This document shows positions 4,235 to 64,000 of a stretch of DNA of 64,000 nucleotides, one piece after another. Source of the DNA: Gemmatimonadota bacterium. GTDB lineage: Bacteria; Gemmatimonadota; Gemmatimonadetes; Gemmatimonadales; GWC2-71-9. Numbering within the stretch: position 1 is the stretch's first letter; each line of letters begins with the position of its first letter. Location: positions 30,355 to 94,354 of the forward strand of contig JBGQFX010000002.1 of NCBI GenBank assembly GCA_041497135.1, read 5' to 3'. Under the pieces are notes generated by a model. The model saw nothing but the letters and a program-made list of their open reading frames with translations. It was not told the origin of the DNA and made no database searches. The position numbers and the translations under genes were made by a program.

Positions 4235-4926
4235 TCATGTGACTGGAGCCGGCTGCGGCGGCGGGAGCACGCCGAGCTTCTCCAGGAGATGCAAGTGCGC
4301 CAGCGCGGGTTGGGTCAGCCGCATCCCGTGCAGCGCCTCCCGGTGCCGTTCCAGGAAGCGGCAAATCTCGCGAGCCGCGTGCGCGAGACTGATGACGACC
4401 GGCGCACGGTGGACGTCACCGGAGCGGCCGGCAAACACGGCCAGGCGCGCGCGACAGCGAAGCCCTCCAGGGTGCTCCATCTCGGCGGTGCCGCGCTGGA
4501 GCAATGCCTGGACGTGATGGCCGACATGGCCCGCGCGCAGCAGCCGAGCCGCTCCAGGGTGGCCCGCAACGTATCCGCGCGCTTGAGATTCGGATTGACG
4601 CGGGCCTTTCCTTCCTTGACCTCGCAGATCAGGAGATCCATGGCGTCGTCTCCGACGCGCAACCCCGGATCGGGGCGAGCCTCGTGCTCGGGGCCGGCGC
4701 CCAACGGCTGGGCGAGCGGAAAGCGGAGCGCGATCACGTCGACATCGGTCACCATCTCACTACCGCTCGACCCCGCTCCGACGATCGGGAACTCGGTGAC
4801 CGTCAGGTAGCCGCTGAGGTGCAAATAGGCTTGTACGAGTGCCACGGCTGGGTCCACGAGTCTTCCCTCCGGTACAGGCTCGTGCCGCACGCCTCGGGCC
4901 GGGGCGGCGCTGCTTTCATCGCCCAT
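4235..4926 (-). pseudogene. PD-(D/E)XK-like hypothetical protein, apparently interrupted by a 1-nt frameshift near 4540-4560
   Basis: The N-terminal frame (track 4315..4926) has ...TDVDVIALRF...MDLLICEVKEGKARVNPNLKRADTLRATLERLG (D...E-x-K pattern) and then turns into Ala/Arg/Ser-rich shadow sequence. The protein-like continuation LLRAGHVGHHVQALLQRGTAEMEHP...VVISLAHAAREICRFLERHREALHGMRLTQPALAHLHLLEKLGVL lies in the frame of track ORF 4235..4504. Confidence 0.4.
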
Positions 4927-5012
4927 GATTTCAGTCGGTTAGGCGAGGAAACCAGCCGCGGCCAGGTCCCAGCGCGGGCGAGGCCGCTCGCGGAATGGGG
5001 CAGATGCCCCGC

Positions 5013-5672
5013 TCATCGCAGATGTGGTTGAGAGGAGCGAGGCGACTGTAGCCGCGCCACGATCTCGCGCCAGATTCCGTTCCTTCGGACGTGCGAGATC
5101 GCGAGACCGGCCGCCACCACGTTTTCCTCCGTGCGGCGGTTGATCTCGGGCCCGAAGATTCGGCGTGTGAGCGGACTCAGCCAGTCGAATATTTTGGCCA
5201 AAACGGGGTTCGTCGGACGGACGTGCTCCAAGAGGAGCACTGTTCCGTCGGGACGCACGACGCGGCTTACCTCCTCCAGTCCCCGGATCGGATGCTCGAC
5301 GGAGCAAAACACGCAGGTGGCCGTGGCCGTGGCAAAGGTTCCGTCCCGGAATGGAAGGGCCTCGGCGGCCGCGCGGACGTACTCCACCGTTCGCCCGAGC
5401 GTCTTCCCCCGGTGCCGGGCGCGTACGAGCATCCGCGCCGAGATGTCCACGGCGGTGAGCTGCACGCCCTGCGGGTACAGCGGGAGATTCCGGCCGGTGC
5501 CTACCCCGACTTCCAGGGTGAGTCCTTGCGCGCGTTCGATCACGCGGCGGCGCCGCGCCCGGCCGCCCATCGCCTCCATGGGTGCCTCGAGCCAATCGTA
5601 AAGCGGCGCCATGCGGTCGTAGACCCGTGCCACGACAAATGGTCGCATCCACCACCTACGCGGTTCACTCAC
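5013..5672 (-). CDS. class I SAM-dependent methyltransferase
   Basis: 219 aa. LTLEVGVGTGRNL (motif I), DISARML, ALPFRDGTFATATATCVFCSV and VVRPDGTVLLLEH fit the Methyltransf_11/UbiE-like pattern. Confidence 0.85.
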   Translation of the reverse strand: MSEPRRWWMRPFVVARVYDRMAPLYDWLEAPMEAMGGRARRRRVIERAQGLTLEVGVGTGRNLPLYPQGVQLTAVDISARMLVRARHRGKTLGRTVEYVRAAAEALPFRDGTFATATATCVFCSVEHPIRGLEEVSRVVRPDGTVLLLEHVRPTNPVLAKIFDWLSPLTRRIFGPEINRRTEENVVAAGLAISHVRRNGIWREIVARLQSPRSSQPHLR

Positions 5673-5843
5673 CTGTCTGACTCTCGGGCGCAGACCCTCG
5701 CGACTGGCACCAACCCATTAGCCGCGAGGCGCTGAAGAGCCTCCGATGGTGACTCTTCTCGCCGCTCGCTACCAACCGGAGCCGAGGCGGGCTCACGCAA
5801 ACCGGGCGATGCCAGCGCCAGCAGGAGCTCGGTGCTGGCCGTA

Positions 5844-6140
5844 CTAGTGGTGACCACTCGACTCCTGCGACGCGCGGCTCGCGTAGTGATCCGGCGCAGC
5901 GGCGAACCGCTTGCGGCAGGCCTCGCCGCAGAAGTAGTAGGTGTTGCCGGCGTGCGCGACCTTCGCGACCGCAGGGTCCGCGTCGAAGGTCATGCCGCAG
6001 ACGGGATCGGTGACTCTCATGGATGGCTCCTTCGGATGACGGGTGGCATATCTCCTGGCAGCCCAGAGGAGCCAGACGATGAACCCGGCGGCGATGACCC
6101 ACCACGCAGAAATCGCGGCTTCCTGGATTGGGTTCAGCAT
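5844..6140 (-). CDS. membrane-anchored YHS domain protein
   Basis: 98 aa. One N-terminal TM (AAISAWWVIAAGFIVWLLWAA) followed by DPVCGMTFDADPAVAKVAHAGNTYYFCGEACRKRF, a YHS/TRASH motif. Confidence 0.8.
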   Translation of the reverse strand: MLNPIQEAAISAWWVIAAGFIVWLLWAARRYATRHPKEPSMRVTDPVCGMTFDADPAVAKVAHAGNTYYFCGEACRKRFAAAPDHYASRASQESSGHH

Positions 6141-6148
6141 GGGACCCC

Positions 6149-6523
6149 CTATTCAACGACGATCCGGCCCCGCAACATCCCCATCTGACAGCTGAATGGG
6201 TATTCTCCACGCTCGGTCGGAACGAATTCGACCGCCACCTCTTCGCCTTCCGGCAGGAGCGCGCTCTTGTCGAATGCGGGCAAGACCACGCGCTCGCTAC
6301 ACAGGGCCGACTCTTCACGCCGAAACACGAGCCGCACGGGCCGGCCCCGCCTCACGACGATGGTGTCAGGCGTGTACCCGCCCTTGACCACGATGAGCGC
6401 GCTTTGGACGCCGCCCGACAGCGCCGCGAAGACGCCTCGGGGCGTGGAGAGCCAGAAGTACCAAACGATCGCCCCGATGGTCGCGAGGCCGATGAGGTCG
6501 ATGAGGACTTTGTCGAGCGGCAT
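6149..6523 (-). CDS. cupredoxin-like (plastocyanin-fold) domain protein with N-terminal TM
   Basis: 124 aa. TM helix, then VRLVFRREESALCSERVVLPAFD...GEYPFSCQMGMLRGRIVV. This pattern is typical of copA-adjacent cupredoxin_1 proteins. It starts 3 nt after the copA stop. Confidence 0.7.
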   Translation of the reverse strand: MPLDKVLIDLIGLATIGAIVWYFWLSTPRGVFAALSGGVQSALIVVKGGYTPDTIVVRRGRPVRLVFRREESALCSERVVLPAFDKSALLPEGEEVAVEFVPTERGEYPFSCQMGMLRGRIVVE

Positions 6524-36791: not shown

Positions 36792-38672
36792 ATGACCACC
36801 GCCACCGAGCGCAAACCAGCACCCGCCGTCAGCGCCGACGAAGCCCGCGCGGTCGCCGAGGCGGCCCGCGAAGAGCATTGGACGGCGCCCAGCTTCGTCC
36901 GGGATCTCTTCCTGGGCAAGCTGCGGATGGATCTCATCCATCCCTACCCCCTTCAGGATCCGGCCGAAGCCGAGCGGGCGCGGCCGTTCCTCGAACAGTT
37001 GGGGCGATTGCTGACCACGGTGGACTCCGACCGGATCGACCGGGAGGGCGAGATTCCTCCCGCCATCGTCCAGGGGCTGAAGGACATCGGCGCCTTCGGG
37101 ATCAAGATCCCGCGTGAGTACGGCGGACTCGGCCTGTCGCAGCTCTCGTACATGAAGGCGATCGAGCTGGTGTCGTCGGTCGACGGATCGATCACGGCGC
37201 TGCTGTCGGCGCACCAGTCCATCGGCGTCCCGCAGCCGCTCAAGATGTTCGGCAGCGAGGCGCAGAAGAAGAAGTTCTTCCCCCGCCTGGCCAAGGGGGC
37301 CGTGTCGGCCTTCGCGCTCACCGAGCCGAACGTCGGCTCCGACCCGGCCGCCATGGAAACCACCGCCGTGCCCTCACCCGACGGCCAGGCGTGGATCCTG
37401 AACGGCGAGAAGCTGTGGTGCACCAACGGTACCATCGCCGAGCTGATGGTGGTGATGGCGCGCACGCCGTCCAAGGTCGTGGACGGGAAGGAAAAGCGGC
37501 AGATCACCGCCTTCATCGTCGAGGCCAACTGGCCCGGGGTGAAGGTCGAGCACCGCTCTCATTTCATGGGGCTGAAGGCGATCTACAACGGTGTCATCTC
37601 GTTCACGAACGTCCGCGTGCCCAAGGAGAACATCCTGTGGGCCGAGGGAAAAGGCCTGAAGCTCGCACTGATCACCTTGAACACTGGCCGACTGACACTG
37701 CCCATTTCCGCCGCCGCGTGCGGCAAGCGGTGCCTCGAGATCTCGCGCCACTGGGCCAACGAGCGGGTGCAATGGGGCCGCAAGATCGGCCAGCACGACG
37801 CCGTGGCGCAGATGATCTGCACCATGGCGGCCAATACGTTGGCGATGGAGGCGGTGGCGGAGCTGTGCGGTGCACTCGCCGACCGGGGCGAGTCCGACAT
37901 CCGGCTCGAGGCGGCGATCGCGAAGCTGTACAATTCGGAAGCGGGCTGGCGCATCATCGACGACACCGTGCAGGTGCGCGGCGGCCGGGGCTACGAGACG
38001 GCCGACAGCCTGCGCGCCCGGGGCGAGAAGCCCGTGCCCGTCGAGCGCATCATGCGCGACTTCCGCATCAATCTGATCTTCGAGGGCAGCTCCGAAATCA
38101 TGCACCTGTTCATCGCCCGTGAGGCCGTGGACAAGCACCTGCAGGTCGCGGGCGACGTCGTGATGCCGGGCAAGGCGCTGGGGCAGCGGCTGGCCGGCCT
38201 GGCGCGCTCGGCGCTGTTCTACGGCTGGTGGTACCCCTCACGCTGGATCGGCTGGGGCTTCTGGCCGAAGTACGGAGCGTTCGGACCGCTCGCCACGCAT
38301 GTGCGGTTCATCGAGCGCTCGGCCCGTCGTCTCGCCCGTGGCGTGTTCCACGCGATGGTTCGCTTCGGTCCCAAGCTCGAGCTGCGCCAGGGTGTGCTGT
38401 TCCGTCTGGTCGACGTCGGCGCGGAGCTCTTCGCCATGGCTTCAACCTGCTCCCGCGCCGCCCGACTGCTTCGGGACGACCCCACGACGGGCGCACACGC
38501 GATGCGCGTCGCCGACGTATTCTGCCGTCAGGCCCGCGGTCGCGTGCAGTCGAAATTCCACGGCCTGTGGCGCAACGAGGACGTGCCGACGTATCGCGTG
38601 GCCCAAGAGGTGCTCAAGGGGGAGCACGCGTGGCTGGAACAAGGGATGGTGCCTGTCAACTACAACGCGTGA
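36792..38672 (+). CDS. acyl-CoA dehydrogenase family protein (long form with C-terminal extension)
   Basis: 626 aa. FALTEPNVGSDPA, WCTNG and RGGRGYE motifs. Confidence 0.92.
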   Translation: MTTATERKPAPAVSADEARAVAEAAREEHWTAPSFVRDLFLGKLRMDLIHPYPLQDPAEAERARPFLEQLGRLLTTVDSDRIDREGEIPPAIVQGLKDIGAFGIKIPREYGGLGLSQLSYMKAIELVSSVDGSITALLSAHQSIGVPQPLKMFGSEAQKKKFFPRLAKGAVSAFALTEPNVGSDPAAMETTAVPSPDGQAWILNGEKLWCTNGTIAELMVVMARTPSKVVDGKEKRQITAFIVEANWPGVKVEHRSHFMGLKAIYNGVISFTNVRVPKENILWAEGKGLKLALITLNTGRLTLPISAAACGKRCLEISRHWANERVQWGRKIGQHDAVAQMICTMAANTLAMEAVAELCGALADRGESDIRLEAAIAKLYNSEAGWRIIDDTVQVRGGRGYETADSLRARGEKPVPVERIMRDFRINLIFEGSSEIMHLFIAREAVDKHLQVAGDVVMPGKALGQRLAGLARSALFYGWWYPSRWIGWGFWPKYGAFGPLATHVRFIERSARRLARGVFHAMVRFGPKLELRQGVLFRLVDVGAELFAMASTCSRAARLLRDDPTTGAHAMRVADVFCRQARGRVQSKFHGLWRNEDVPTYRVAQEVLKGEHAWLEQGMVPVNYNA

Positions 38673-38674
38673 AC

Positions 38675-38710
38675 GGTTGGAAGGTTGGAAAGTTGGAAGG
38701 TTGGAAGGTG
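38675..38710. repeat. family A palindrome, left arm: 4.5 tandem octamers (GGTTGGAA)
   Basis: ggttggaa ggttggaa agttggaa ggttggaa ggtg. It starts 3 nt after the acyl-CoA dehydrogenase stop. 33/36 nt are identical to 60474..60509. Confidence 0.9.
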
Positions 38711-38713
38711 AAT

Positions 38714-39085
38714 TCAACGGAACATTGCTTCGTGGCGTCTAGCCGACTCATGCAAGCCCCAGGTGAGCTTGCCCGCAATACTTCTCAGCTCCTCCAACTC
38801 CGCGAATTGTTTCGCTGATAAGTAGGACAGTTCCTTCGATAGCAGGATCTGATAGCACAACTCCGCGAGCGAACCAAGGGCGATATCGAGGTAGCGTCGC
38901 AACGCTCGCGCTCCGCGCTTGGCGCTCCCCTCGGCGATATTCGAAGCAGTGGACACCGCGGCTCGACGCATCTGAACCACAAGTCCATAGCGTTCGGTAT
39001 CTGGGAAACTCGAAGTCACGCGGTAGGTCGCAATGGCAAGCACGTGACACGCCCGCCACGCGTCGAGACGCTCATAAGGCATCAT
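38714..39085 (-). CDS. four-helix-bundle protein (23S rRNA intervening-sequence protein / Avd-like family)
   Basis: 123 aa. YERLDAWRACHVLAIATYRVTSSFPDTERYGLVVQMRRAAVSTASNIAEGSAKRG...YLDIALGSLAELCYQILLSKELSYL is the signature of the TIGR02436-type family. Visibly lower GC than the flanking DNA. A TAGAAT -10-like box lies at 39106-39101 (reverse strand). Confidence 0.85.
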   Translation of the reverse strand: MMPYERLDAWRACHVLAIATYRVTSSFPDTERYGLVVQMRRAAVSTASNIAEGSAKRGARALRRYLDIALGSLAELCYQILLSKELSYLSAKQFAELEELRSIAGKLTWGLHESARRHEAMFR

Positions 39086-39163
39086 CGTACGATGGTGTGG
39101 ATTCTACCGACAAACCGCCAATTCAAAACCACTCAAGACACAACGAAACCACGCGAACTGCGT

Positions 39164-39216
39164 CACCTTCCAACTTTCCAACCTTCATCACCTTCCACCC
39201 TTCCAACCTTCCATCC
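39164..39216. repeat. family A palindrome, right arm: about 6 tandem complementary units (TTCCAACC variants)
   Basis: caccttcc aactttcc aaccttca tcaccttcc acccttcc aaccttcc atcc, the reverse complement of the left-arm units. It ends 4 nt before the stop of the convergent PRTase gene. Confidence 0.85.
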
Positions 39217-39220
39217 TGCA

Positions 39221-39877
39221 TCATGCCGCCTGGTGCGCAATCATGATGCTCTTCAGCCGCTCCGGACTGTCCCCCGACGCGTCCCCGTAGGGTGAGGGGT
39301 GCTGTTTATCGTCCGGCAGCACGTTGGGACAGATGAATTCATATCCGCGGGCCCGGATTCGCTCCGCGGCCGTGACGCTCGCGACCGGCGTGGCGATCGC
39401 GATCCGCTTCCCGCCCAATTCGGTGACGGCGCGCGCCGCGGCCAGCATCTTCCACGGAAACAGCACCTGGCCGTCCACGATGATCAGCTGGCGATCCTCG
39501 AACTTCTTGATCGGCCGCTGCGTGCGGTACAGCACCAGGTCGCGACGCACCCGGGCGCGCGATTCCTCGATCGCCGACTCGAGCTTCTCCACCAGGTTCA
39601 TCCCCGGCTGGAAATCCGGGTCCATCTCCGCCCGGCCGGCGAACTCCGCCATCGCCCCGATCGGGGCCAGATTGGCGCCAAGCCGGATGAAGGAAGCGAC
39701 CAGCACGTCGAAGCTGGCCCCCATGGCTTTCGAGGCGTTGGCCGCGATCTCCACCCCTTCGGGCGTCACACCCAGCAGCAGGCAGGAGACGTATCCCTGG
39801 GACGCCAGAAGCTGCCCCAACGCGGCGCCTGCGGCGGACCGGGTGGGATAGAGGCTGCTGCGGGGTGGCGTGGGCAC
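39221..39877 (-). CDS. phosphoribosyltransferase-family protein
   Basis: 218 aa. LIIVDGQV (PRPP-loop-like acidic/hydrophobic motif) in a type I PRT fold pattern. Confidence 0.7.
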   Translation of the reverse strand: MPTPPRSSLYPTRSAAGAALGQLLASQGYVSCLLLGVTPEGVEIAANASKAMGASFDVLVASFIRLGANLAPIGAMAEFAGRAEMDPDFQPGMNLVEKLESAIEESRARVRRDLVLYRTQRPIKKFEDRQLIIVDGQVLFPWKMLAAARAVTELGGKRIAIATPVASVTAAERIRARGYEFICPNVLPDDKQHPSPYGDASGDSPERLKSIMIAHQAA

Positions 39878-49144: not shown

Positions 49145-49813
49145 GTTCTCTTCGCGAGCTCTCTTCCTGAGCAACGCCGCCGTCCCCACCACCGCAATCC
49201 CCGCAAAACTGAACCACTGGATCGCGTACGACAGGTGGGGCCCGTCGTCGAGCGGCGGGGTGCGCCATCGCGCCAGCCCTGCCGGATGCGCGGCGGCGGT
49301 GTCGTCGAGCTGGATCACGATCGGCAGCACCGCATAGGGCAGCGAATCGCGCAGCCGGGCCGGATCGACATCACCCCGGTCGCGCGGCGCCAGCAGCGCA
49401 AGCCCGGCGATGGCGACGCTATCCCCTTCGCGATAGCGTGTCGCGTCGATGTGGCGGGCGTCGGCGGACGGCACCCAGCCGCGATCCACGAACACCGCCG
49501 ACCCGTCGGCCAGGCGAAGCGGGGTCAAGAGCGCCACACCCGGCGCGCCATGATAGGTGCGACCCGCCCACACCCGCTCGTGCGCGTAGTCGTAAACGCC
49601 GAGCGCCGTGGCGCGCCGGTCGCGCAAGGCATCGGGGTCGAGGTGCGCCGTCGGGAGCACGACCGGCGACAGCGCGCGAGCCGCCGCGATCTCGGCGTTC
49701 CGAGCGCGTCGCTCCTGCAGCCGATGCAGCTGCCAGAACCCGAGCCGGACGAAGAGCGCGGCCAGCGACAACGCCACGGCCGCGCCGAGCAGATCGCGCC
49801 AGCGCAGCCTCAC
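49124..49813 (-). CDS. SURF1-family (cytochrome oxidase assembly) protein
   Basis: 229 aa. N- and C-terminal TM helices. WQLHRLQERR and YAIQWFSFA are SURF1 signatures. The GTG start forms a GTGA overlap with the GIY-YIG stop. Confidence 0.85.
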   Translation of the reverse strand: MRLRWRDLLGAAVALSLAALFVRLGFWQLHRLQERRARNAEIAAARALSPVVLPTAHLDPDALRDRRATALGVYDYAHERVWAGRTYHGAPGVALLTPLRLADGSAVFVDRGWVPSADARHIDATRYREGDSVAIAGLALLAPRDRGDVDPARLRDSLPYAVLPIVIQLDDTAAAHPAGLARWRTPPLDDGPHLSYAIQWFSFAGIAVVGTAALLRKRAREENDVGRMA

Positions 49814-50076
49814 GGCCCAACCTGCACAAGTCGGAGTTTCGCCGCTCTCGGCAGCCGCTTGATCTCAGCCTCCCGCCGCAGCGCCGCCCCGCGACTCGCA
49901 CGCGGCTCGCGGTATACGACGCGCACCGGCAGCCGGGAGCGCGTGTAGGCACTCCCCTTTCCCGTGCGGTGTGCCGCCAGCCGCCGCTCGAGATCGTTGG
50001 TCACACCGGTGTAGAGGGAGCCGTCACGGCAACGCAGCATGTAGACGAGCCACGCCTTTACTTTCCAACCTTCCAA
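49810..50076 (-). CDS. GIY-YIG nuclease-family small protein (UPF0213-like)
   Basis: WLVYMLRCRDGSLYTGVTNDLERRLAAHRTGKGSAYTRSRLPVRVVYRE...REAEIKRLPRAAKL is the canonical GIY-YIG core. The start is uncertain: the first in-frame start upstream of the beta-1 strand is TTG 50076, inside the octamer repeat, and the next ATG (50040) would truncate the fold. Confidence 0.78.
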   Translation of the reverse strand: MEGWKVKAWLVYMLRCRDGSLYTGVTNDLERRLAAHRTGKGSAYTRSRLPVRVVYREPRASRGAALRREAEIKRLPRAAKLRLVQVGP

Positions 50077-50088
50077 CCTTCCAACCTG
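50061..50088. repeat. family A half-palindrome (three octamer units) at the 5' end of the GIY-YIG gene
   Basis: ctttccaa ccttccaa ccttccaa cctg, which is GGTTGGAA x3 on the gene strand. I found no complementary arm. Confidence 0.8.
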
Positions 50089-57524: not shown

Positions 57525-57526
57525 CG

Positions 57527-57603
57527 TGATCGGTCATCGGTGATCAGTATTCGGTGGTTCGATGCCTATGACCGATCACCGATGACCGATGACCGATGAC
57601 CGA
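57527..57603. repeat. family C palindrome (C2): five heptamer units per arm
   Basis: Left arm TGATCGG TCATCGG TGATCAG TATTCGG TGGTTCG; right arm ATGACCG ATCACCG ATGACCG ATGACCG ATGACCG. 57529-57545 pairs perfectly (17 bp) with 57574-57590. It fills the convergent gap between the M1 stop (57524) and the pntB stop (57604). Confidence 0.85.
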
Positions 57604-60461: not shown

Positions 60462-62561
60462 ATGCGAATGAGCGGATGGAAGGTCGGAAAGTTGGAAGGT
60501 TGGAAGGTCGGGACGTTCCTGCTTTCCGTCTTTCCAACATTCCACCTTTCGGCCCAGTGTCCCGACGGCTCCCCACCGCCGTGCCAGCGCAGCCCGGCTC
60601 CGCCCCGCGTTACGATCGACTCCAACGCCGTCGCGATCCTGCCCTTCCGCGTGAGCGGCCCGCCCGAAGCGCAGTACCTCCGGGAAGGGATGGTGGATCT
60701 CCTCAACGTCGCGCTCGATGGTCTCGCCGGGTGGCGGGTCATCCAGCCACGAGCGTTTCTCCGCCAGGTGAGCGCCGGCGGGGGCGACATCGACGTCCCG
60801 CAAGCTGCCCGCCTCGCGCGCGCCGCCGGTGCCGCGACCTTCGTGCTCGGCAATGTGGTCTCACTCGGTCCGGAGATCCGGGTCCAGGCCGCCCTCTACG
60901 AGTCGACGCGGGGGACATCGCTCGCGTCGGTCCGGGCGCGCGGCGCGGTGGCCCTTCCGGCGCCCGTCGCTGACAGCATCGCCGGGGGCTTGGCGCGACA
61001 GCGGCTCGTGCTGCACGCCGGCGGAACGCGCCACGCCCTCGAGGAATACACGACGACGTCGCCGGTCGCCCTGCAAGCCTATCTGATCGCCGAGCAATTG
61101 GCGCGACACGCTCGATGGCAAGAGGCCGCGGAGAGTCTGACGGTTGCCATCGCGCTCGATTCGACATTCGCCCTGGCCTACTATGGCTTGTACCGGGCGA
61201 TCAGCTGGGGCAACTCCGGACCGATCCTCCAGCAAGCGTCAGGCCGGGCGATTACCCCATACACGATCGATGAGGTGATCCAGGCGGCGCTGCGGCATCT
61301 CGATCGCGCGCCGCCACGCCAGCGGCGGCTGCTCGAGTACGCGTCCGCAACCAATCGCGCCGATGCGCTGCGGCTCGCGGACGGCCTGACGCGGGACTAT
61401 CCGGACGATGCCGATGCCTGGCTGGAGCGTGGCGACGCGTACTTCCATATCGGTTTGGAGAGCGGTGAGCCGCCAACGATTGCGCTCGAGAGTCTGGAAC
61501 GCGCCATCGCGCTCGATCCCCAGGTCCCCGAAGCCTATCTGCACGTGGTCCAGCTGCGCAGCATGCTGGGCGACAGCGCCGGGGCCTGGCAAACGCTCGA
61601 TCGGTTACGCGCCATGGCCTCGACGTGGGAGGCCACCGTCGGATTGGATCTCGCCATGCGCGCCTGGTGGCGAGGAACGGACCCCGCATCGCTCACGGCT
61701 CCGAGCTCCGAAATCGCCTCGATTATTGGGCGTTACCTCCTGCTCATCGGAGACCCATCGCCGGCACGGGCCGTGGCACTCGCCGATTCATTCGCTGTGC
61801 TCGCAGCCACGCCGGATCGCGCCCCCGCCGAGCGCGTGACGGCGCTGCTGCGGGGCCAGGTCTACCATCTCGCCCAGGGGCGACACGCCAGCGCCTGGGA
61901 GCTGCTGCGGCAGGCCGCGGTGCTGGACCCGGCCGGCCAAGAAGTCCTGGGTGCCACGGTGTTGCACCACCTGGTGACCGGCACGCACGCTTCGGAAGCC
62001 GCCGATGCAGCGCGCCAACTGGCGTCGTCGCCAGGGACGTTGCCGTGGTGGGCGGCTGCAGTGCTTGCGTGGCGGGCCGCCGTCACCGAAGCGACGGACT
62101 CAGCCGCAAACACCGTGCGTCAACTGCTCTCCGCCGGGGAGTACGCGACGTTTCGGTCGGCGCTCGGGGACGGACTCTTGGGGCTGGTGTCGCTTCGGGT
62201 CGGAGATACCGTCACGGCACGCCGTGAGCTGGCGCGGGGCAATGTCGCCTGGGTCGAGACCCGCAACATCGAGAAATTCCTTCCCACCCCGGTCCTGGGC
62301 CTCGAGACGGCGCGGCTCGATGTGCGAGCGGGTGATCTCGATGTGGCGAGCCGCCGGCTGTACGAGACCACCGGACCGATCGGCGTCATGTTCCGCGCTC
62401 AAGCCGAGGAGCTGCGCGGCCAGATCGCTCTGCAACGGGCGGACACCGCGGCGGCGATCCGCGCCTACCACAACCTCGTCGACCTGTGGCGGGATGCAGA
62501 TCCCGGGCTGCAGCCACGCGTCGCCGCGGCGCGGGCGGCGTTGGCGAGGCTGGGAAGGTGA
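60462..62561 (+). CDS. TolB-N-like + TPR repeat protein with CPDGSPPPC N-terminal motif
   Basis: 699 aa; the start is uncertain because ATG 60462/60468 and TTG 60492 all lie in or next to the palindrome. ...FLLSVFPTFHLSAQCPDGSPPPCQR, AILPFRVSG...DLLNVALDG, then multiple TPR-like helices to the C-terminus. Confidence 0.8.
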   Translation: MRMSGWKVGKLEGWKVGTFLLSVFPTFHLSAQCPDGSPPPCQRSPAPPRVTIDSNAVAILPFRVSGPPEAQYLREGMVDLLNVALDGLAGWRVIQPRAFLRQVSAGGGDIDVPQAARLARAAGAATFVLGNVVSLGPEIRVQAALYESTRGTSLASVRARGAVALPAPVADSIAGGLARQRLVLHAGGTRHALEEYTTTSPVALQAYLIAEQLARHARWQEAAESLTVAIALDSTFALAYYGLYRAISWGNSGPILQQASGRAITPYTIDEVIQAALRHLDRAPPRQRRLLEYASATNRADALRLADGLTRDYPDDADAWLERGDAYFHIGLESGEPPTIALESLERAIALDPQVPEAYLHVVQLRSMLGDSAGAWQTLDRLRAMASTWEATVGLDLAMRAWWRGTDPASLTAPSSEIASIIGRYLLLIGDPSPARAVALADSFAVLAATPDRAPAERVTALLRGQVYHLAQGRHASAWELLRQAAVLDPAGQEVLGATVLHHLVTGTHASEAADAARQLASSPGTLPWWAAAVLAWRAAVTEATDSAANTVRQLLSAGEYATFRSALGDGLLGLVSLRVGDTVTARRELARGNVAWVETRNIEKFLPTPVLGLETARLDVRAGDLDVASRRLYETTGPIGVMFRAQAEELRGQIALQRADTAAAIRAYHNLVDLWRDADPGLQPRVAAARAALARLGR
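60474..60552. repeat. family A palindrome, complete and 'empty' (8-nt loop)
   Basis: Left arm ggatggaa ggtcggaa agttggaa ggttggaa ggtcggga (60474-60513). Loop cgttcctg. Right arm ctttccgt ctttccaa cattccac ctttcgg (60522-60552). About 70-75% Watson-Crick pairing, plus G-U pairs. It lies over the 5' end of the TPR gene. Confidence 0.8.
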
Positions 62562-62567
62562 GACGGC

Positions 62568-62651
62568 GGTTGGGCGGATGGGCGGATGGGCGGATGGTGG
62601 CATTGGCCACCGCGTTTCTATCCGCCTATCCGACCATCCGACCATCCGTCC
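62568..62651. repeat. family A-variant palindrome (unit GGATGGGC / complement GMCYATCC)
   Basis: Left arm ggttgggc ggatgggc ggatgggc ggatggtg (62568-62599). Apex GGTGGC-attg-GCCACC. Right arm gcctatcc gaccatcc gaccatcc gtcc (62624-62651). It contains ATG 62594 of the next gene. Confidence 0.7.
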
Positions 62652-64000
62652 TCTTCGCCCAGTGCCCCGACGGCTCACCCCCACCCTGCACCCGCCCAGC
62701 TCGCACCGGCCCGGCAGACCGTACGCCGTCACTCACCGTCCTGTATCTCGAAAACGTTTCCCCGGACACGACGGACGTCGCTCTGGCCGATGGCCTGACC
62801 GAGGAGCTCATCGCGCGGCTGTCGCAGGTATCCGGGCTTCGGGTCACGGGACGCTACGGGGCCCTGCGTTACCGCGGCCGTCGCCCGCTCGATCCGCGTA
62901 TCATTGGGCGCGAGTCGGGCGTCCGCTATGTCTTGCAGGGCACCCTGCGCCATAGCGCCGAGCGCGTGCGCGTCGCCGTGGAGATGATCGACGTCACGAC
63001 CGGCTTCAACGTGTGGGGGCAGACGTACGAGCAGGCGAGCCGGGACGTGTTCGCGGTACAGGACTCGGTCGCCGTCCAGGTTGTCGAAGCCGTACGCGGC
63101 CGGCTGACGCGTCAGGAGCTCGCACGACTCACGCCCCGAGTGCCGCCCATCAACAGCGAAGCCTACGACGCCTACCTGCGCGGCACGGCCGTGCTACGGG
63201 CCCGAACCGCCACGGCGGGAGCGAGCGCGATTGCACAGTTCCGTCGCGCGGTATCTCTGGACCCGACCTTCGCCGCCGGCCACGCGCGTCTCGCGGAAGC
63301 GTACGCGCTGGCGGCCATCTGGGGCTGGGACGTTCCCGATGTGCCATACGACAGTCTGGCCGGTCTCGCCCAGCGTGCTGCCGGGCGCGCGCTGGCGCTC
63401 GATTCGACGAACGCGGAATCCTGGCTCGGCGCGGCGATGGCAATGCGGTTCACCGATCCGCGCCGCTCCGTGGGTCTGCACCGGCGCGCCGTTGCGCTCG
63501 ATCCCAGCAGCACCGAAGCCCTACATCAGCTGGCGGCCGGACTCAGAGCCATAGGCGACCAGGATAGCGCCATGGCGACCGAGGATCGCGTGCTGGCGCG
63601 CGATCCATATTACAGCTACGTGTACGCGTTCCAAGCGCAGATCGCGAACAACGCCGGCCGGCCGCTCGAGGCGGTGGCGCGAGCCAGTCGGGGACTCGCG
63701 ATCGATTCCTCCCAGGCGGATACCTATCGGCAGCTGGCCGATGCCGACCTCCAGCTCGGCCGCTTCGGCGAGGCGCGTCTGGCGGCCCAGCGGGCCCTGG
63801 CGCTCGGGGCTCGTCCCACCGCGACCCGGGTGACGCTCGCGCTCGCCGATTTCTTCGCAGGGGACACGAGCCGGGCGCGCACCGCGGTCGATGCCCTGGG
63901 GCGGGAATCGCGCAGGCGGCTGGTCCGCTCACCTGGTGGGTTGCCCTTTTTCGAGGCGGGGTACCTCTCCGCCGCTTATGCGCAGCTCGGGATCGCCGAC
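62594..64000 (+). CDS. TolB-N-like + TPR repeat protein, paralog of 60462..62561 (3' end beyond window)
   Basis: Not in the ORF track (no stop). The frame is open for 469 codons from ATG 62594 to the window end. MVALATAFLSAYPTIRPSVLFAQCPDGSPPPCTR..., LTVLYLENVSPDTTDVALADGLTEELIARL..., then TPR-like repeats (EAYDAYLRG, LDPTFAAGHARLAEAYA ...), ending ...GYLSAAYAQLGIAD. Confidence 0.75.
   Translation, partial: MVALATAFLSAYPTIRPSVLFAQCPDGSPPPCTRPARTGPADRTPSLTVLYLENVSPDTTDVALADGLTEELIARLSQVSGLRVTGRYGALRYRGRRPLDPRIIGRESGVRYVLQGTLRHSAERVRVAVEMIDVTTGFNVWGQTYEQASRDVFAVQDSVAVQVVEAVRGRLTRQELARLTPRVPPINSEAYDAYLRGTAVLRARTATAGASAIAQFRRAVSLDPTFAAGHARLAEAYALAAIWGWDVPDVPYDSLAGLAQRAAGRALALDSTNAESWLGAAMAMRFTDPRRSVGLHRRAVALDPSSTEALHQLAAGLRAIGDQDSAMATEDRVLARDPYYSYVYAFQAQIANNAGRPLEAVARASRGLAIDSSQADTYRQLADADLQLGRFGEARLAAQRALALGARPTATRVTLALADFFAGDTSRARTAVDALGRESRRRLVRSPGGLPFFEAGYLSAAYAQLGIAD

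Follow-up and report, generated by a model that had tools for sequence, protein, structure and literature searches.

A PF05635 gene between inverted tandem-repeat arms in Gemmatimonadales: a candidate intervening-sequence-type gene cassette outside rRNA

Introduction

Why should a gene of the family found in rRNA intervening sequences lie between two inverted arrays of short tandem repeats, in the gap between two protein-coding genes? The question is raised by a 542-bp unit in a 64,000-nucleotide stretch of DNA from a Gemmatimonadota bacterium (Gemmatimonadales, GWC2-71-9; assembly GCA_041497135.1, contig JBGQFX010000002.1, positions 30,355 to 94,354 of the forward strand), hereafter the window. 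A first-pass annotation of the letters alone had noticed there a 123-aa four-helix-bundle gene between two arms of tandem octamers. It had proposed that the gene-in-a-stem-loop geometry of 23S rRNA intervening sequences (IVSs) recurs here outside rRNA, either as a hairpin-borne mobile gene cassette or as a hairpin that acts as an insertion target. We present evidence that the unit is on balance probably an IVS-type palindromic gene cassette, a piece of selfish or semi-mobile DNA.

rRNA IVSs end in inverted repeats that enclose a loop with an S23p open reading frame (ORF), and their origin has been called 'unclear' (PMC4990558). In the IVS of Coxiella, a terminal stem of 28 bp closes the loop that holds the S23p ORF, and there are three GACAGAT heptamers, the number of which varies by strain; excision by RNase III has been demonstrated for the IVSs of Coxiella, Salmonella and Leptospira (PMC4990558). 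Genes of PF05635 (IVP genes) have already been noted in rRNA IVSs, in rRNA insertions of the candidate phyla radiation (CPR) and in cas loci, as has their homology to Avd, and an association with CRISPR-Cas loci has been reported (PMC3936711, PMC10910872). In a literature search of incomplete coverage, we found no description of palindromic tandem arms around non-rRNA IVP genes, of gene-less derivatives or of presence/absence dynamics.

Results

The IVP gene lies in the loop of a long palindrome

The unit is composed of two arms, the IVP gene and a spacer (Table 1). It lies between the TGA stop codon of a gene for a 626-aa acyl-CoA dehydrogenase, which ends at 38672, and the stop codon (39221-39223) of a convergent 218-aa ORF, and it fills the gap between the two stops to within 2-3 nt on each side, as first noticed. 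The gene was placed on the minus strand; read in its sense direction, the unit begins with the G-rich arm (5'; 39217 down to 39163) and ends with the C-rich one (3'). The edges of the C-rich arm are 2 nt past the IVP stop codon and 2 nt past the dehydrogenase stop, and the G-rich arm ends 3 nt short of the stop of the 218-aa ORF. Tandem Repeats Finder (TRF) assigned a period of 8 to both arms, with 4.4 copies and 92% matches on the dehydrogenase side (38675-38709) and 6.5 copies and 76% matches, with an interruption, on the other side (39165-39217), in line with the 4.5 and about 6 copies of the first-pass annotation. Pairing between the arms is perfect over 22 nt (38680-38701 with 39165-39186), 90% over 30 nt and 76% over 41 nt. 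The GC content of the unit (0.535-0.61) is indeed lower than that of the flanks (0.65-0.70).

A 16-mer representing two units, GGTTGGAAGGTTGGAA, was found 13 times in the window when up to 3 mismatches were allowed, compared to 0.17 occurrences expected, and all occurrences fell in five arrays: two inverted pairs and one solitary array. Folded as RNA, the whole unit was more stable than shuffled sequences on the plus strand (z = -3.93) and on the minus strand (z = -4.45), with none of 100 shuffles as good in either case; folded as single-stranded DNA (ssDNA), it gave z = -2.36, with 2 of 100 shuffles as good. The arms alone, joined by a short loop, gave z = -6.62 as RNA (0 of 200 shuffles as good). 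Arm-to-arm pairing was present in every minimum free energy (MFE) structure of the unit. The fold comparison suggested with the first description therefore came out in favour of a stable stem. An Rfam scan of the window at gathering thresholds gave no match, hence no rRNA was detected.

The IVP protein is conserved, and its spacer probably carries a promoter

The 123-aa protein matched Pfam PF05635 (E = 6.6e-29; 100.7 bits, cut-off 33.8), TIGR02436 (E = 1.6e-26; 92.7 bits, cut-off 24) and, by sequence, PDB 2GSC (XCC0516, a pentameric four-helix bundle; E = 9.3e-24). The family assignment made by eye was thus confirmed for TIGR02436, whereas the Avd equivalog model NF033474 was not reached (19.5 bits, cut-off 80). 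The consensus motif of the family is GxxRxxxSxxxNxxE (PMC3936711); RxxxSxxxNxxE is present in the translation as RAAVSTASNIAE, with Q in place of the leading G. The dN/dS values among the orthologues of the window, L005 and L006 were 0.16, 0.075 and 0.069. Because dN/dS between orthologues overall was 0.02-0.16, the protein is, by this measure of sequence divergence, under strong purifying selection and functional.

In the spacer, TTTTGAATTGG is located about 40 nt and TAGAAT about 20 nt upstream of the ATG. A pentamer of the GGTTA/GGTAC/GATGA class, fixed in position, was found at -50 to -28 relative to the ATG in 43 of 58 distinct Gemmatimonadales cassettes (shuffles: mean 11, maximum 18), and most of the real matches were binned at -40 to -36. 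Judging from these motifs, the spacer probably carries an internal promoter; a sigma-70 promoter scan of 38500-39400 found nothing. A scan of the same region for intrinsic terminators (a G+C-rich hairpin followed by a T-run) found none in the window copy. In the cassettes of L007-L011 and L034, a canonical intrinsic terminator, GGCGGC ttcat GCCGCC followed by T8 (2408-2440 in L007), is positioned just inside the 5' arm; L015, L066, L077 and several further clades have a comparable run of T after this arm. Cyanobacterial cassettes have GGAG-like units in the 5' arm, which runs up to the start codon.

The same design recurs in three phyla

Metagenome contigs were scanned for homologues, yielding 80 loci with 50-69% identical proteins. 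In about 70 of these 80 Gemmatimonadales loci, many of them orthologous, so that the counts are not independent, the gene lies between complementary tandem-unit arms. These loci share one layout: first a tandem-unit arm rich in G, then the gene, then, at the stop codon, a C-rich arm complementary to the first. About 35-145 nt separate the 5' arm from the start codon, and the 3' arm begins within a few nt of the stop. The unit differs by locus (GGAATGAT, GGGCGGAT, GGCGGTAAG, GACGGAA, a 25-nt unit containing GGCGGTCAA, and GCGGGGAA among others), and the two arms of any single locus are always matched to each other.

Three loci, L015, L066 and L077, at first appeared to have the gene without arms, and this was rejected: the 5' arm is present, and the 3' arm is inside an extended ORF. 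In these loci (gene ends near 2923, 1674 and 2923, respectively), the IVP stop codon is lost and the ORF reads through the 3' arm, producing a tail '...PTFQPSN...' of translated CCTTCCAACC units that ends inside the 3' end of the neighbouring gene. Relatives with the gene at this site and no arms, named beforehand as a finding that would speak against the proposal, were therefore reduced to cases with arms.

A TRF-based survey of inverted array pairs in 882 kb gave 119 pairs with a bimodal distribution of loop lengths, 60 nt or less in 38 pairs and 400-550 nt in 69. Of 96 matches to the IVP profile hidden Markov model (HMM), 72 were inside a TRF-defined inverted array pair. The G-rich arm came first in 110 of 118 pairs, and the first-pass concern that the arrays might be scattered irrespective of orientation was thereby answered. 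Because the arms are inverted repeats, this polarity is the same on both strands and is a property of the palindrome, not of gene orientation.

Outside the metagenome set, homologues were compared from cyanobacteria, from Gemmatirosa, from a BREX operon and from the 23S rRNA IVS of Azospirillum; about 14 of these 15 showed the design, among them 10 of the 11 that are plasmid-borne. Plasmid-borne IVP genes with arms are located between cas10 and cmr3 in Picosynechococcus and between cas6 and cas4 in Pseudanabaena; others are those of Stanieria, Aulosira, Nostoc punctiforme, Geminocystis, two Calothrix (one weak), Gemmatirosa kalamazoonensis and Azospirillum. The exception is Nostoc PCC 7120, in which no array but the 3' one can be seen and an ISL3 transposase gene borders the 5' side. 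The remaining four armed loci are two in a BREX operon and two on other contigs, of 151 kb and 1.5 Mb. Searching related genomes for paired arrays, as had been suggested, thus gave the same arrangement in about 85 further loci in three phyla. The armed genes of the BREX operon (L182, 6513-6929 and 10001-10372) are placed around PglX and before the AAA/PglZ segment, and those at L168 (686-1042) and L169 (701-1060) are in cas loci, one between cas10 and cmr3 and the other between cas6 and cas4.

At the orthologous site the cassette is present, flipped, reduced or absent

We compared the intergenic region between the dehydrogenase gene and the 218-aa ORF in relatives, using one genome per species with the acyl-CoA dehydrogenase, and obtained 37 loci with the same convergent gene pair. 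The IVP gene is present in four of them (L093, L095, L103 and L116), in L095 in the opposite orientation. In the closest relative, L087, the flanks are 96% and 98% identical to those of the window and the genes are separated by 102 nt, consisting of GGTTGGAAGGTTGGA, 'ggtgaat', about 60 nt that align to the central part of the window IVP gene (profile positions 42-60), and TTTCCAACCCTCCAAC. On this alignment, the L087 gap is an internal-deletion derivative of the same cassette. L121 has arms and a probable gene remnant, and L107 has kept a single CCTTCCAACC arm; L111 and others have bare hairpins of related units. About 14 relatives have 0-15 nt between the two stops and no hairpin, and in L113 a gene of about 1.5 kb (4869-6413; M20-peptidase-like by eye) occupies the gap instead of a hairpin. 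The 'occupied' and 'empty' versions that the first-pass annotation had distinguished are thus both found at a single site, and L087, with the same arms and a gene fragment, links them. The cassette is lost by internal deletion, first down to arms around a piece of the gene and then to a bare short-loop hairpin. Judging from these alleles, one clade of Gemmatimonadales inherits the cassette at this site, which is polymorphic for its presence or absence.

The arrays also reach into neighbouring coding sequence. In L103 (4867-4890) and L116, the array overwrites the last codons of the dehydrogenase gene and supplies its stop (...GACGGGTAG followed by ACGGGTAG), and units likewise supply the dehydrogenase stop in L091, L096 and L007 (2380-2395), for example ...GGAATGA followed by TGGAATGA. 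Units with a period of 7, 8, 10 or 13 nt cycle through all reading frames.

Among the 80 metagenomic loci, 16 belong to the context cluster of the window, and in 15 of these the flanks contain a recognisable 218-aa ORF and/or dehydrogenase gene. Irrespective of the arms, the proteins encoded at this site are more closely related to one another than to any others, and the arm units form a graded 8-mer series (GGTTGGAA, GGAATGAT, GGTTAGAC, GGGTAGAC and GGATNGGC), each matched on the other arm; therefore, both arms changed together in place. An earlier idea of ours, that the different units mark independent insertions, was dropped on the same two grounds. The proteins of L007 and L009 are 97% identical, yet their loops are opposite relative to the flanks, and the same holds for L016 and L026; recombination between the arms therefore flips the loop often. 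To judge from the sequences, the cassette has mostly been transmitted vertically at this site, with frequent flips and losses rather than frequent jumping. Divergence of the protein is not linked to that of the flanks (L095: flank 89%, protein 60%; L005: flank 86%, protein 89%), and the empty state with overlapping stops is common to distant relatives. Both observations fit allele exchange or repeated homing better than strict vertical descent, and the cassette may have spread among relatives through recombination between homologous flanks or through site-specific homing.

Arms and gene have moved together to other contexts

One clade (clade 10; proteins at least 70% identical, unit GATGGGCKG) carries the cassette in at least three contexts whose flanks, 1.5-2.4 kb each, are unrelated, and in the alignment the homology spans the unit from the outer edge of the G-rich arm to that of the C-rich arm. 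For pairs of loci in different contexts, arm similarity was 0.52 for proteins at least 70% identical, compared to a baseline of 0.22 otherwise. The edge-to-edge homology and the covariation of arms with protein indicate that the arms move with the gene and then drift. Of the two alternatives first proposed, a hairpin-borne mobile cassette is thus supported, arms and gene behaving as one unit in unrelated contexts.

With orthologous loci included, the genes flanking occupied copies are convergent (3'/3') in 26 cases, tandem in 9 and divergent in 1, and the median distance from stop codon to array edge is -1 nt. The cassette sits at the 3' ends of genes, abutting or overlapping their stop codons.

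Gene-less hairpins of many unit families

The window contains five short-loop hairpins with tandem units, with fold z-scores from -4.5 to -9 (Table 1); in the four other than that at 60474, the units are of 7, 8 or 13 nt and unrelated in sequence. The one at 60474 is nearly perfect, and its left arm (60474-60509) is identical to 38675-38710 at 33 of 36 positions, as reported before; the loop is 3 nt in the MFE structure, not the 8 nt given originally. In the window, the GGTTGGAA family thus has one occupied, one empty and one half copy. The hairpin at 57526-57603 occupies exactly the space between a convergent pair of stop codons. Arms matching the GGCGGATG unit at 62565 were found on IVP cassettes in other genomes (L020, L030, L038 and L095). 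The sequences after two of the hairpins (60548-60600 and 62649-62700; cccagtgtcccgacggctcccc and cccagtgccccgacggctcaccc, respectively) are alike and look like the starts of two paralogous genes, each after a tandem-unit hairpin.

The half copy is a solitary GGTTGGAA x3 array directly 5', on the sense strand, of an 83-aa ORF on the minus strand (49813-50087) that is GIY-YIG-like by eye. Possible TTG/GTG starts of this ORF are inside the array, its stop overlaps the start of the next gene, and its 3' end has no complementary arm. No NCBIfam model matched it, and in the DNA examined for homologues only the window copy was found. The ORF with its array may represent a second kind of cargo or a half-decayed hairpin.

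In 200 kb of G. kalamazoonensis KBS708, we found about 25 tandem-unit hairpins of about 9 unit families, most of them in more than one dispersed copy, and a single IVP cassette, with the unit GAGGGCAGG. At least three gene-less GAGGGCAGG hairpins are in the same 200 kb. By blastn, the Gemmatirosa cassette matched 19 places on two megaplasmids, 16 of them on plasmid 2; among the matches listed, the only non-cassette one (on plasmid 2) covers the arm region alone. No second IVP paralogue of G. kalamazoonensis was found among the best 120 protein matches. Nested palindromes occur in Gemmatirosa at L180 (30714-30875) and L181 (27328-27508 and 40728-40877), where a hairpin of the CACGGAGGACA or GCAGAGGAC family lies within the loop of a hairpin of another family. 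Strictly local spread of hairpins from a cassette was considered and rejected: the unit of a cassette was found near it only in L057, in addition to the internal extra arrays of L020 and L030.

The named homologues and the orthologous contigs are from Gemmatimonadales. Within 3 kb, the neighbours of the window IVP gene are a BNR/sortilin gene, the 218-aa ORF, the acyl-CoA dehydrogenase gene and a rhomboid gene.

Table 1. Arms, gene, spacer and gene-less repeats in the window
Feature	Position	Strand	Basis
Arm on the acyl-CoA dehydrogenase side, (GGTTGGAA)x4.4	38675..38711	+	TRF, inverted-repeat pairs, sequence
PF05635 IVP gene, 123 aa	38714..39085	-	Pfam, TIGR02436 and PDB 2GSC matches
Spacer of 77 nt, from 5' arm to start codon	39086..39162	-	sequence, conserved pentamer
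Arm on the 218-aa ORF side, TTCCAACC-type units x6.5, one interruption	39163..39217	+	TRF, inverted repeats, ORF list
Hairpin with 13-mer units	49033-49150		fold better than shuffles
Solitary (GGTTGGAA)x3 array	50063..50087	-	TRF, 100% matches; no complementary partner, no fold of its own
Hairpin with CGGTCAT-type units	55572-55629		fold better than shuffles
Hairpin with CGGTCAT-type units	57526-57603		fold better than shuffles
Short-loop 'empty' hairpin of the GGTTGGAA unit family	60474..60552		sequence, pattern search, RNA fold (z = -5.35)
Hairpin with GGCGGATG units	62565-62648		fold better than shuffles

Discussion

The best-supported reading of these data is that the unit is a copy of a discrete element, composed of arm, spacer, gene and arm, that is rarely gained and long kept. 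In structure, as far as its sequence tells, the window element is an ORF-bearing IVS outside rRNA. ORF-bearing 23S rRNA IVSs (Leptospira, Coxiella and Azospirillum; helix 45 or 25) have a protein of the same family in the loop, complementary terminal arms forming a long stem, a size of about 0.45-0.55 kb and short tandem purine-rich units, GACAGAT in Coxiella and of the GGACRGA type in Azospirillum. In Azospirillum lipoferum, the locus was identified as a 23S rRNA gene (Rfam LSU, 1130 bits), and the ORF of its IVS lies between TCAGAGGACGGATGACAGAGGACGGAGGACAGAAAG and the complement of that sequence; with the homologues, this IVS of the same arm design bears out the geometry proposed at first sight. 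There are differences as well. The window copy is located between two protein-coding genes, not in a 23S rRNA helix, and has its own spacer with a promoter-like motif; its gene is under purifying selection, whereas the ORF of Coxiella is decaying; and RNase III excision has been demonstrated for rRNA IVSs, whereas the window stem is known from sequence and folds. The reading best supported by these comparisons is that ORF-bearing rRNA IVSs belong to this class of element, with an rRNA helix as their site of insertion.

Four other known systems resemble the cassette in part. Like repetitive extragenic palindromes (REPs), their inverted doublets (REPINs) and the REP-associated tyrosine transposases (RAYTs), the cassette is a single gene flanked by inverted copies of a palindromic repeat, and the repeat is also found gene-less, dispersed and intergenic at gene 3' ends (60474-60552 and 50063-50087 in the window; Gemmatirosa). 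Unlike a RAYT, the window protein is a PF05635 four-helix bundle and not a Y1 HUH transposase; the arms, instead of being a fixed REP, consist of short units in tandem, the copy number of which varies; and there are many unit families per genome, with no apparent one-to-one link between gene and hairpin family. Drosophila foldback (FB) transposons and miniature inverted-repeat transposable elements (MITEs) have long terminal inverted repeats of tandem sub-repeats and variable loops, some of them coding, and their short gene-less derivatives arise by internal deletion. The cassette shares the terminal inverted repeats and the gene-less deletion derivatives; it differs in being prokaryotic and in lacking both a transposase in the unit and a target-site duplication at 21 loci. 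These two are the closest analogies, and both fail on the enzyme, the cassette having neither a Y1 transposase nor any other.

Avd, of diversity-generating retroelements (DGRs), binds nucleic acid and a reverse transcriptase. A review compares the PF05635 structure 2GSC (XCC0516) with Avd 4DWL; the fold is a homologous four-helix bundle in a pentameric family, and 2GSC matches the window gene by sequence. The window gene scored far below the cut-off of the Avd equivalog model, and there is no reverse transcriptase or template/variable repeat among its neighbours within 3 kb. Between the genes of heterocystous cyanobacteria lie tandem heptamers known as short tandemly repeated repetitive (STRR) sequences. 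Cyanobacterial IVP genes likewise have heptamer arrays as arms, for example GGAGTCA in Aulosira and Nostoc punctiforme; the comparison covered 10 plasmid loci. To our knowledge, STRRs have neither been linked to PF05635 genes nor been described as paired inverted arms.

How might such a cassette work? The arms would pair as an ssDNA hairpin or cruciform and/or as a double-stranded RNA stem in read-through transcripts, and pairing would loop the insert out of its surroundings. As RNA, the stem could be an RNase III substrate, making the insertion harmless wherever it landed; as DNA, the arms would promote inversion and deletion and probably insertion as well. The repeated units are most likely bound by the pentameric Avd-like protein, which would thereby help the cassette and its gene-less derivatives to persist or spread; in that case, the relationship of protein to hairpin would resemble that of RAYT and REPINs.

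Several observations weigh against the cassette reading. No target-site duplication was found at the junctions of 21 orthologous loci, and the cassette encodes no transposase, nuclease or reverse transcriptase, its only Pfam family being PF05635. Most arm types track genomic context, which is compatible with rare movement, a few ancient acquisitions being followed by vertical descent. Gene-less hairpins near a cassette mostly differ from it in unit, several unit families have no matching gene in the sampled DNA, and the link of protein to hairpin need not be one-to-one. The metagenomic counts, as noted, include many orthologous loci. As to the RNA stem, the terminator inside the 5' arm of the L007 group would halt host read-through before the gene, and the long-range stem would therefore rarely form there; mismatches between the arms carry no strand-specific RNA signal (79 of G:U type and 64 of A:C type, p = 0.24). 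Finally, complementarity of the arms needs no function, and gene conversion alone could keep it.

Some of these points suit a different explanation, in which the hairpins are an independent, abundant, REP-like or terminator-like class that came first, and the IVP gene with its spacer inserts preferentially into their loops, the arms belonging to the site. In unbiased DNA, gene-less hairpins outnumber occupied ones (5 to 1 in the window, about 25 to 1 in the 200 kb of Gemmatirosa, with about 9 families), neighbouring hairpins are mostly of other units than the resident cassette, rRNA IVSs replace the tips of pre-existing helices, and the proteins of L013 and L033 nest within the site-resident lineage yet sit elsewhere with a different unit. 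The nested hairpins indicate that loops accept insertions, which is as far as the original idea of a hairpin as insertion target is borne out. It is less favoured by clade 10, where the same unit surrounds the gene in at least three unrelated contexts and homology runs from arm edge to arm edge, and by the way arm similarity tracks protein identity across contexts; moreover, the near-empty L087 and L121 hold gene fragments, pointing to deletion rather than to a pre-existing hairpin, and many relatives have a gap of 0-15 nt with no hairpin as a target. We therefore regard hairpins preceding the gene as unlikely. A chance juxtaposition of simple repeats around an ordinary small gene hardly deserves credence. 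The window does contain many low-scoring tandem repeats, but the 13 occurrences of GGTTGGAAGGTTGGAA against 0.17 expected, the strongly negative fold z-scores, the roughly 85 further loci in three phyla with differing but internally matched units, and the G-rich-first order in 110 of 118 pairs refute it by counts.

The unit might instead be an immobile, domesticated RNA module, its stem serving as an RNase III site or as a 3'-end stabiliser or insulator in convergent read-through transcripts, and the flip of its loop as a switch for termination of the neighbour and for sense or antisense expression of IVP. The stem does form in RNA folds of both strands; the arms begin 2-3 nt past both stops, leaving no room for another terminator; long residence at the site goes together with strong purifying selection on the protein; flips are recent, as in L007 and L009 with their 97% identical proteins; the terminator of the L007 group adjoins the 5' arm on its inner side; and rRNA IVSs, which RNase III excises, provide a precedent. 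On the other side, most relatives have lost the unit without replacement, so it is dispensable; the same unit turns up within operons and in contexts that have nothing in common; G:U-type mismatches in the arms are not in excess over those of A:C type; and the window copy has no U-tract terminator. We consider such a domesticated role quite improbable. The IVS-type cassette thus remains our preferred explanation.

A broader proposal, which we offer tentatively and which may well not hold, is that PF05635 genes and tandem-unit hairpins together form an unrecognised, phylum-spanning class of mobile elements, a counterpart of RAYTs and REPINs in which the pentameric, Avd-like protein would bind nucleic acid, recognising the units of its own arms, and would mobilise or maintain the cassette and hundreds of gene-less hairpins per genome. 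If so, rRNA IVSs, the short tandem repeats of cyanobacteria and the 'CRISPR- or BREX-associated' IVP genes would be one system, and the constant G-rich-first polarity would reflect the mechanism that generates or copies the arms.

For annotation, tandem arms may confuse repeat finders and CRISPR-array finders, and they can overwrite the stop codons of neighbouring genes or of the IVP gene itself. The associations of IVP genes with CRISPR-Cas, and the BREX copies, may be cassette insertions rather than accessory functions. The cassette offers a concrete origin for the numerous intergenic hairpins of Gemmatimonadales, about one per 10 kb in the window. The origin, mobility and ORF function of rRNA IVSs have been questions since about 1990; if rRNA IVSs are a subset of these elements, the same questions become testable in intergenic DNA, which offers presence/absence, flipped and decayed alleles, and in cultured hosts such as Gemmatirosa kalamazoonensis KBS708 and Nostoc.

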